Shown in pieces: positions 61,465 through 62,417 of a stretch of DNA of 64,000 nucleotides. A program made the position numbers and the translations under genes. Position 1 is the first letter of the stretch; every line of letters starts with the position of its first letter. Below the pieces are notes generated by a model that saw only the letters and a program-made list of their open reading frames with translations, searched no databases and was not told where the DNA came from. Origin of the DNA: a virus; IMG/VR virus record IMGVR_UViG_3300025030_000046, positions 32,001-96,000 of that record; one strand, given 5' to 3'.

Positions 61465-62097
61465 ATGGAGATGAGTATTACTAGAGGTTTATCTGAACTG
61501 AAACTACTTAAAGACAGAATAGAGCGAAAAATACAATCATCAAAGTATATCGTAGGCAATAAGAAAAGCAATAAGAAGATAGATGGGATTTATAGCAAGG
61601 AAGATTTGATTACTACAATAAAAGCTGACTATCAAAGTGTGCTAGATTTAATTAACAGAAGGAAAATAATTAAGTCCGAAATAGTTAAATCAAACGCTAA
61701 TACTATAGTTAAAATTTCTGGAAAAGAAATGACTGTTGCTGAAGCTATTGAAAGAAAAGAATCAATTCAATTTGAAAAGACTCTACTTAACACTATGGAG
61801 CAACACTATAGATTGGCAATTGCAAAAGTTGCATCTGAAAATGAAAAAGTACAAATAAATTTAGACAATCTGCTTAATACCACATTTGGTAAAGAGAATA
61901 AAAATAAGACGGCAGATAATGAGATTAAAATGATTTCAGAACCTTATCTTGAGCAGAATGAGTGGGAAGTAATTAATCCACTGAAGTTGCAAGATGAAAT
62001 AGAGAAATTAAAGACTGACATAGAAGACTTTTTGAACGAAGTGGACTTCATCCTATCGGAGTCAAACACGATTACTAAGATTCAGATACCTGAATAA
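61465..62097 (+). CDS. Helical coiled-coil protein resembling DIP1984/DUF6847-type family
   Basis: MSITRGLSELKLLKDRI...IVKSNANT...MTVAEAIERK...EVDFILSESN.IT; family call from memory. Confidence 0.6.
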   Translation: MEMSITRGLSELKLLKDRIERKIQSSKYIVGNKKSNKKIDGIYSKEDLITTIKADYQSVLDLINRRKIIKSEIVKSNANTIVKISGKEMTVAEAIERKESIQFEKTLLNTMEQHYRLAIAKVASENEKVQINLDNLLNTTFGKENKNKTADNEIKMISEPYLEQNEWEVINPLKLQDEIEKLKTDIEDFLNEVDFILSESNTITKIQIPE

Positions 62098-62110
62098 ACA
62101 GTTTAATATT

Positions 62111-62417
62111 TTGTAGTTATCCGAAAACTATAGACTTAAATCACCCAATTCTTCAGGGTATATTGAAGAAACAAGAAGAAAAATTAAGTTCTATATTCAA
62201 ATGGTGAATATTGATTTTATTATCTAATACTTACGTATACACGTAATAATGCGTAAAAGCTCAAAGATTAAATTTCAATATTTAAAGTTTAGAATTTAAA
62301 GCTCTTTTTGATTAAAGTTATAAATCATAAGTCTAAAAGTTCGATGAAATCCAAGATAAAAGGTTTAAGTGTTGATTTAATTGACTTATAGTAATCCTCT
62401 TGGCTGGATAGTTACAA
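62111..62417 (+). ncRNA. Putative about 310-nt multibranch structured RNA with heptamer repeats
   Basis: Terminal helix TTGTAGTTATCC/GGATAGTTACAA (2 G-U), nested helices, no ORF. Confidence 0.7.

Follow-up and report, generated by a model that had tools for sequence, protein, structure and literature searches.

Does the structured non-coding interval that follows a gene for a 210-residue protein in an uncultured phage belong functionally to that gene, and if so, what do the two make together? The locus lies in a window of 64,000 nucleotides (nt), covering bases 32001–96000 of the 139-kb IMG/VR virus record IMGVR_UViG_3300025030_000046, which derives from an uncultured low-GC phage. The stop codon of the open reading frame (ORF) occupies positions 62095–62097 and the structured RNA begins 13 nt beyond it. 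An initial annotation of the sequence had proposed a protein–noncoding RNA (ncRNA) pair, in which a run of degenerate heptamers within the RNA would offer repeated binding sites to an oligomer of the upstream protein; all the elements that it named were located at their positions in the window sequence. Here we show that evolution has preserved the fold of this RNA on the plus strand, and that widely differing phages, as well as some bacterial chromosomes, inherit it together with the gene of a helical protein. Judged from these comparisons, the gene (61465–62097) and the RNA (62111–62417) probably constitute one two-part module, most likely a ribonucleoprotein, a reading that we hold with moderate confidence.

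The linkage between gene and RNA was approached from both sides. A protein-guided scan of viral contigs yielded six loci with 56–94% protein identity, and the downstream element was kept in all six. Starting from the RNA, a pattern describing the 3′ domain matched 12 stretches, comprising nine family members and three chance matches; the three new contigs obtained with this pattern all carry a homologous gene directly upstream. A second pattern, taken from the consensus of the Rfam family RAGATH-27, gave the same picture, as every locus with a 3′-domain match had the gene upstream. By tblastn, the protein was found in 757 phage records, its carriers including T5-like Salmonella and Escherichia phages, Pseudomonas Otagovirus, Vibrio phages, Bacillus Bastille-like phages, Lactococcus 949-like phages and the Clostridium phages phiCD211 and D-1873. 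In seven out of seven annotated phage regions, the gene is followed by a gap of 401–1233 nt without annotation that contains the same RNA architecture. Another 80 loci, mostly of Bacillales, came from a scan of bacterial genomes.

Taken together, 127 of 144 loci with the protein have an nhmmer match to the 3′ domain on the same strand, 95–316 nt after the gene, and the order and strand of gene and RNA are constant. Only one locus contained the RNA alone and this locus is itself cut at its start; wherever upstream sequence existed, the gene was present. The 17 protein-only loci consist of two whose sequence breaks off within 125 nt of the gene end, seven duplicates of one type and eight bearing a heptad tract, four of which also possess the 3′ motif. 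A homologous RNA lies behind the homologous genes, and the initial annotation is supported in that the RNA is genetically coupled to the upstream protein. At an identity of 90% or more, 441 phage records contain the RNA in its T5-like form, and 22 of the 25 listed rows lack an annotation for it. A blastn search of the window locus against phage records returned two short coding-region matches only.

Such a near-obligate link to one protein family, extending across Demerecviridae, Herelleviridae, Otagovirus, clostridial phages and chromosomes, would be difficult to account for if the two had no functional tie. It argues against an RNA-only machine of the GOLLD/ROOL kind, in which the RNA would fold, perhaps multimerise, and act alone, with the gene being co-transcribed or a helper. 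The neighbourhood points in the same direction, since different phages carry different genes behind the RNA, whereas the one in front of it is constant. On the other side, the RNA is complex, knotted and closed at its ends and carries conserved unpaired motifs, as might be expected of an RNA acting by itself. GOLLD and ROOL have been described as large, complex orphan RNAs, often residing in phages or prophages near tRNA genes (PMC5737381; 10.1101/2024.12.08.627333). The context of the module resembles this: among non-redundant loci, 10 of 19 viral and 6 of 55 bacterial ones have a same-strand tRNA within 2.5 kb. The Rfam models of GOLLD and ROOL gave no match at gathering score in the window, nor at E ≤ 10 on 62050–62500, and the present RNA differs from both by its smaller size of about 300–450 nt, its heptad track and its almost obligate protein-gene partner. 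We therefore regard an RNA-only machine as unlikely, while taking it seriously.

Next to the question of partnership stands that of the molecule itself. Folding of positions 62100–62420 gave z-scores against shuffles of −3.08 for the plus and −3.02 for the minus strand, and these near-equal values imply that thermodynamics alone decides neither strand nor function. The 127 elements were reduced to 74 non-redundant sequences (at most 92% identity) and aligned by MAFFT (alignment A4), with an additional local alignment of the 3′ domain (A5); with alignments of this kind, pair counts outside well-anchored helices are underestimates. The seven top column pairs by mutual information with average product correction all fall within P1, the stem joining the two ends of the element, or within the CCAAG/CTTGG helix of the 3′ arm. 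In CCAAG/CTTGG, 99.5% of the A4 cells are paired and four of the five pairs show compensatory changes; for P1, the corresponding figures in this non-structural alignment are 75.9% and 11 of 12 pairs. The window variant of P1, TTGTAGTTATCC/GGATAGTTACAA, is replaced in a compensatory manner by TTGTGGCTATTC/GAATAGTCACAA at locus L006 and by TTGTAACTATGC/GCATAGTTACAA at locus L007. The AGG/CCT helix is 78% paired on A4 and the inner hairpin UAAGU/ACUUA 83% on A5. For the entire 3′ domain, pairing on A5 reached 84.2% compared to 66.4% in shuffled alignments, a value attained by 0 of 500 shuffles, and slid controls remained at 29–42%. Both the closing stem and the 3′ arm with its inner TAAGT/ACTTA hairpin, recognized earlier in the window alone, are hereby borne out across the 74 relatives.

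The same helices settle the strand. P1 and the 3′ helices contain 86 G–U cells compared to 15 A–C cells over the 74 sequences, so that only the plus strand pairs well, placing the RNA on the strand of the gene, in line with what had been proposed from the two plus-strand G–U pairs of P1 in the window. This bears on the possibility of a DNA element, for instance a replication origin whose 7-bp iterons the protein would bind. Direct repeats rich in AT, lying beside a conserved gene, and the similar fold z-scores on both strands could be adduced for it. Besides the G–U excess, the pairing is kept by compensatory changes and the pseudoknots are conserved; moreover, in B-DNA a 7-bp spacing places successive sites on different faces of the helix. 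On these grounds, we consider a DNA element extremely unlikely.

One pseudoknot and a second, candidate one, both missed in the initial annotation, add to the conserved core. The pairing of TTCTTCA with TGAAGAA holds, although not as the simple hairpin initially described: it forms stem 2 of an H-type pseudoknot (pseudoknot 1), for which a pattern search placed 51 of the 74 sequences above the 95th percentile of shuffles. Its stem 1 appears in the variants ACCC/GGGT, ACCT/AGGT, CGC/GCG, GACCG/CGGTT and TCCTG/CAGGA. The limits of this search were too narrow for the Lysinibacillus group, where a larger knot with the same topology can be seen by eye. Candidate pseudoknot 2, within the 3′ domain, is 74% paired on A5, and both sides change at all four of its pairs. 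As a side observation, RNAduplex yielded in several members a possible helix of the segment just 3′ of pseudoknot 1 with a late heptad unit. Three further hairpins that had been included in the fold did not stand as family features. The two within the variable region are lineage-specific and not conserved: the ATATTCA/TGAATAT columns are gapped in 60–61 of the 74 sequences and 58% paired, and the TTACGT/ACGTAA columns are gapped in 37–47 sequences and 41–44% paired, compared to 32–43% for slid controls. TGATT/AATCA, with 48% of cells paired on A4, is unsupported.

The heptad tract, described at first as a run of seven degenerate heptamers, proved to be a significant periodic feature. Within the window, its self-identity at lag 7 is 0.57 versus 0.33 for shuffled sequence (z 4.0), with z 4.3 at lag 14, z 2.4 at lag 21 and z −0.6 at lag 5. 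The period is kept in the family, the best lag being 7 or 14 in 73 of 74 relatives, and the first tract holds seven units in 66 of 74. The lag-7 signal runs on to an AAAUCC motif in 47 of 74 sequences, and the lag-14 signal does so in another 25. The consensus of the unit is A(0.92) A(0.83) A(0.72) G(0.61) N U(0.87) C/U, that is, A-A-A-G-N-U-Y, and the entropies of positions 1–7, calculated from the 64 sequences among the 74 whose alignment is gap-free, are 0.08, 0.65, 1.0, 1.2, 1.68, 0.35 and 1.27 bits. Showing the lowest entropies, A1 and U6 are the fixed points of the unit, whereas position 5 is nearly free. Mimicry of a T-loop by GUUCAAA was considered and rejected, since no position of the unit varies more than the one that would correspond to U54.

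Alternating fixed and variable positions are also a property of VIPR, a phage protein bound to an RNA composed of short tandem repeats and a knotted tail (10.64898/2026.04.26.720920). VIPR loci are described there as minimal and as residing mostly in phages and proviruses and sometimes on chromosomes; the protein gene is flanked by the ncRNA, whose repeats with fixed and variable positions are joined to a constant pseudoknotted part, and a ribonucleoprotein is formed. By analogy, the protein might hold A1 and U6, and positions 3, 4, 5 and 7 would provide a non-contiguous target code. The high entropy of position 5 and the 1.0–1.27 bits of positions 3, 4 and 7, set against positions 1 and 6, would suit such a guide, as would the parallel of repeat tract and knotted constant part to the vrRNAs, and of the four tract substitutions between the window and the near-identical loci L002 and L003, three fall on position 5 and one on position 7. 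Hypervariable guide positions were rejected, however, since the tract is not hypervariable between close relatives: the window and L002 differ at about 4 of its 49 nt, compared to about 6 of 92 nt within the 3′ domain. The components differ as well. The vrRNA units are described as 5 nt long (YNNGG) and present in 9–16 copies within about 100 nt in total, whereas here the units are 7 nt long (AAAGNUY), in 7 plus about 4 copies, and the closed RNA measures about 300 nt. Vipr is reported to be a RAMP with an RRM core, G-loop and thumb, in contrast to the predicted helical bundle with a small sheet (by DSSP) of the partner protein; no RAMP appeared among its Foldseek or VIA matches, an absence from hit lists that does not exclude the fold. 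VIPR is the nearest published working analogy, but as predicted protein fold, unit length and variability all differ, it is an analogue and not a relative, and we give little credence to a VIPR-like guide.

Periodic reading of RNA by a protein is also known from the HutP/hut leader and TRAP/trp leader systems of Bacillus, in which an oligomeric protein reads short motifs at fixed spacing on single-stranded RNA, the UAG-N4 repeats of HutP having a spacing of 7 nt. The motif here is A....U. instead of UAG or GAG, and the repeats are embedded in a large, knotted stand-alone RNA and not in an mRNA leader, with no terminator/antiterminator logic visible. Neither HutP nor TRAP (TrpBP) was matched in Pfam by the window protein or 29 homologues at E ≤ 1 among the 25 most frequent families listed. 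The tandem repeats beside a small protein had also led to the suggestion of a type III toxin–antitoxin-like pair or of a decoy system, in which the RNA would act as a sponge for a host factor, a reading to which the AbiEii-like gene beside one bacterial copy (L028) might be added. In the known type III systems (ToxIN, CptIN, TenpIN), the antitoxin repeats are about 34–45 nt long and located upstream of the toxin. Here, the units are 7 nt long and downstream of the gene, PADLOC and Pfam gave no match to ToxN/AbiQ-type or other toxins, and the carriers are mostly lytic phages. This suggestion thus found no support, and we judge it very unlikely.

Is the RNA already known in part? At gathering score, skipping-rope RNA was the only Rfam match in the whole window, with nothing on the heptad RNA, so that the earlier statement that it cannot be assigned to a known family holds for the window copy at these thresholds. 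The best weak match was RAGATH-27 (RF03100) at 62110–62194 with 19.9 bits and E 2.7, compared to a cut-off of 76.1 bits. The alignment follows the conserved unpaired 5′ stretch UUxxUxGUUxxCCGAAAACUxUAxACU, and G62123 (alignment position G29), directly after the 5′ strand of P1, is invariant among the 74 non-redundant sequences. The motif derived from the RAGATH-27 consensus retrieved viral loci, and in 12 of 12 tested the model itself scored 83.3–97.1 bits at the 5′ end of the element; all 12 have the same 3′ domain about 190–280 nt downstream and a phrog_1491 homologue, the family of the partner protein, upstream. With 3′ domain and gene shared, RAGATH-27 corresponds to the first 86 nt of one subclade of a larger RNA, a homology that the initial annotation had not noticed. 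The window copy, below the Rfam cut-off, is not a member by score, yet it is homologous by motif, 3′ domain and gene. RAGATH-27 is listed in Rfam as an orphan candidate small RNA of 86 positions with one annotated hairpin, and its model comprises neither the P1 partner strand nor the pseudoknots, the heptad track, the 3′ domain or the partner protein. Applied to three module-bearing bacterial genomes, the model had no hits, control genomes giving none either. A literature search returned no paper on RAGATH-27, the name being absent from the main text of PMC5737381, and nothing relevant on DIP1984, DUF6847, phrog_1491 or T5 with ncRNA. Of the whole RNA, no more than these 86 nt of one subclade are catalogued.

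The partner protein matches phrog_1491 over its full length (E 2.1e-63, residues 2–208 on profile positions 4–209 of 211). For the window protein, Pfam gave no family at E ≤ 0.1, PADLOC none at E ≤ 0.01 and the NCBIfam scan only noise; sequence searches of the PDB returned nothing meaningful, and the ESM Atlas only unnamed viral clusters. The AlphaFold2 model, with a predicted local distance difference test (pLDDT) score of 88.4, exhibits five long helices and a small sheet of four short strands (DSSP). A single fold match stood out, chain A of PDB entry 3kdq (Z 10.1, root mean square deviation 7.1 Å, 151 of 152 residues aligned, 16% identity; Foldseek E 0.012). It has no detectable sequence relation to the window protein, as a PDB profile search to E 10 gave seven other chains, and the match sheds no light on function so far, 3kdq being a conserved but uncharacterised Corynebacterium diphtheriae protein. 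A multimer prediction, suggested by the proposed oligomer, scored 0.69 for the homodimer compared to 0.00 for the best of three controls, with the partner pLDDT at 88 or above and three runs sharing at least 95% of contacts; of the structures used for calibration, 20 of 30 solved same-chain pairs and 1 of 23 single chains attained the mark. The prediction supports, but does not show, that the protein is a homodimer. Eleven alignment columns of the family consist of at least 85% lysine or arginine, and these, along with the predicted homodimer, are what the protein adds in favour of the heptamers as putative binding sites for an oligomer. In PHROGs, phrog_1491 carries the label ‘tail fiber protein’, which is doubtful and likely an inherited annotation, as the gene resides among early/accessory genes and tRNAs and not among tail genes.

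The immediate surroundings of the RNA raise the further possibility of a cis-acting 3′ untranslated region (UTR) or processing element, governing stability or translation of the upstream mRNA, perhaps by autoregulation. Its start so close to the stop codon and the constant order and strand would fit this, as would the window sequence, where no promoter-like or terminator-like signal above chance was found between or around gene and RNA. At other loci, a hairpin separates gene and RNA (L024 and L026, followed by a T-run in L024) and terminator-like hairpins follow P1 (L022, L025 and L026), which together suggest a separate stable RNA. A knotted element of 300–450 nt with a closed end stem also far exceeds the needs of known 3′-UTR stabilisers. 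A cis-acting role thus seems improbable to us.

The wider context differs between phages and bacteria. Several phages have the module embedded in tRNA arrays: a tRNA-Cys lies at 3979–4055 (+) of L006, 14 nt beyond the 3′ strand of P1, about 20 tRNAs precede the module in Bacillus phage Bcp1 (L026), and tRNAs flank it on both sides in L021; in the window, ARAGORN detected no tRNA or tmRNA. The chromosomal copies (L027–L106, for example L069, L028 and L042), with Lysinibacillus, Bacillus and Brevibacillus among the carriers, are lone cassettes of gene and RNA between cellular genes. Their 106 nearest ORFs are mostly cellular, including eight MFS transporters, five tRNA U5-methyltransferases and three amino-acid permeases, and comprise few phage families. 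In Lysinibacillus, an MFS transporter is located upstream and a TrmA-like methyltransferase downstream. Standing alone between ordinary cellular genes, the cassette suggests that the module works as an autonomous unit. Individual copies have other neighbours, with an AbiEii-like ORF downstream in L028 and a TnpB-like ORF (Cas12f1-like TNB and OrfB_IS605) upstream in L042.

Combining these data, we favour a ribonucleoprotein particle with the heptad track as binding platform, a picture drawn from the genetic linkage, the periodic conservation, the predicted dimer and the precedents discussed above. The RNA would be made with or just after the mRNA of the gene, as suggested by the short distance to the stop codon and the absence of a promoter signal above chance. 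A dimeric protein would then bind the RNA, using the invariant A1 and U6 of each unit as a periodic landing track. If each protomer took one unit, and each dimer accordingly two, this would agree with the 14-nt period, which is as strong as the 7-nt one; the knots at either end of the RNA might fix the register.

Several observations weigh against this reading. The adjacency of gene and RNA could reflect co-transcription only. The protein is mildly acidic (isoelectric point 5.8, median 5.7 over 29 homologues), no known RNA-binding domain was found by Pfam in it or these homologues, and its fold matches besides 3kdq are at noise level for helical bundles. P2, part of the fold as first described, is present in the window and has a core, ACTTA/TAAGT, in common with L006 and L007, but just 9 of 74 sequences exceed the 95th percentile of shuffles, so that it is plausibly real in the window and tentative for the family. 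Finally, the variable region (62171–62252) is complementary to the tract (62253–62306), with an RNAduplex energy of −19.7 kcal/mol compared to −10.8 kcal/mol for shuffled sequence (z −3.7), and the tract may therefore be partly masked and not free. Such complementarity at z < −2 is shared by only 12 of 74 family members (mean z −0.92), and the variable region could be a masking arm or complementary by chance.

As to its role, the module may act in phage–host or phage–phage conflict, or in RNA/tRNA metabolism, a guess that draws on where it is found: among early/accessory genes and within tRNA arrays in large phages, and as a lone cassette on chromosomes.

Table 1 Features of the heptad RNA locus and its surroundings (window coordinates unless another record is named).
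Feature	Position	Strand	Evidence or remark
Partner gene, 210-aa helical protein	61465-62097	+	ORF list; phrog_1491 profile match
Whole structured RNA, 307 nt, ends joined by P1	62111-62417	+	Homologous element behind homologous gene, 127/144 loci
P1 5′ strand TTGTAGTTATCC	62111-62122	+	Pairs with GGATAGTTACAA, 62406-62417
Conserved joining motif GAAAACUA	62123-62130	+	Within stretch resembling RAGATH-27 (alignment to RF03100 consensus)
P2 5′ strand TAGACTTA, tentative	62131-62138	+	8 bp with TAAGTCTA, 62328-62335
Candidate alternative pairing TTAAATCA/TGATTAAA	62136-62143 / 62309-62316	+	
H-type pseudoknot 1, [ACCC]aa(TTCTTCA)[GGGT]atat(TGAAGAA)	62143-62170	+	Pattern search versus shuffles
Pseudoknot 1 stem 1, ACCC/GGGT	62143-62146 / 62156-62159	+	
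Pseudoknot 1 stem 2, TTCTTCA/TGAAGAA	62149-62155 / 62164-62170	+	
Variable region with two lineage-specific hairpins	62171-62252	+	22-191 nt long across family
Hairpin ATATTCA/TGAATAT	62193-62199 / 62205-62211	+	Variable region
Hairpin TTACGT/ACGTAA	62231-62236 / 62241-62246	+	Variable region
Seven 7-nt units AAAGCUC AAAGAUU AAAUUUC AAUAUUU AAAGUUU AGAAUUU AAAGCUC	62256-62304	+	
Break CUUUUU, more degenerate A-rich units, P2 3′ strand TAAGTCTA (62328-62335)	62305-62335	+	
TGATT/AATCA	62309-62313 / 62323-62327	+	Pairing candidate without family support
3′ domain: conserved UCGAUGAAAUCC, CCAAG/CTTGG, AGG/CCT, inner hairpin UAAGU/ACUUA, candidate pseudoknot 2	62336-62405	+	
Candidate pseudoknot 2	62342-62345 with loop 62380-62383	+	
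3′ helix CCAAG/CTTGG	62351-62355 / 62399-62403	+	
Inner hairpin TAAGT/ACTTA	62366-62370 / 62384-62388	+	
P1 3′ strand GGATAGTTACAA	62406-62417	+	Compensatory changes; top pairs by mutual information with average product correction
Next ORF, YonK-like 59-aa protein (PF09642)	start 62471		Non-coding interval of 373 bases before
CoiA-like nuclease	neighbourhood 58122-60069 and 62471-63730		PF06054, E 1.7e-26
Protein with weak sigma-70 region 4 matches	same neighbourhood		Pfam below threshold; phrog_1190, E 1.4e-4
Calcineurin-like metallophosphoesterase and YonK-like 59-aa protein	same neighbourhood		
T5-like RNA	L023 2634-2996		MF431741.1 about 45307-45669, minus strand; phrog_1491 gene P176N_0083 at 45676-46314

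Judging by the genes listed, the window neighbourhood is an accessory or early-type region and not a tail module. Other structured RNAs were noted as side observations. The skipping-rope RNA (RF02924) at 17327–17467 (−) of the window, with 57.1 bits compared to a gathering score of 36.7, is a second orphan structured RNA. In L007, a twister-P1-like match (RF03160) at 3993–4054 (+) begins 3 nt after P1 and scores 41.3 bits, below the cut-off of 67.2. In Clostridium phage D-1873 (L020), a drum RNA (RF02958; 47.7 bits, cut-off 43) occupies 3901–4008 (+), about 430 nt after the heptad RNA and inside a 1.2-kb unannotated gap.

A more far-reaching version of the ribonucleoprotein reading may be formulated, although we consider it a long shot: an undescribed ribonucleoprotein class of large phages and some Firmicute chromosomes, in which a dimeric helical protein would read a 7-nt track on a doubly knotted RNA, and the variable positions would form a VIPR-like non-contiguous code directing the particle to a nucleic-acid target in phage–phage or phage–host conflict. 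Independent of this, a conserved module of protein and RNA sits unannotated in hundreds of sequenced phages, and its T5-like carriers make the function directly testable by standard genetics and biochemistry. If the heptad track is indeed a periodic protein-binding or coding device, it would represent a new principle beside TRAP/HutP and the VIPR RNAs.

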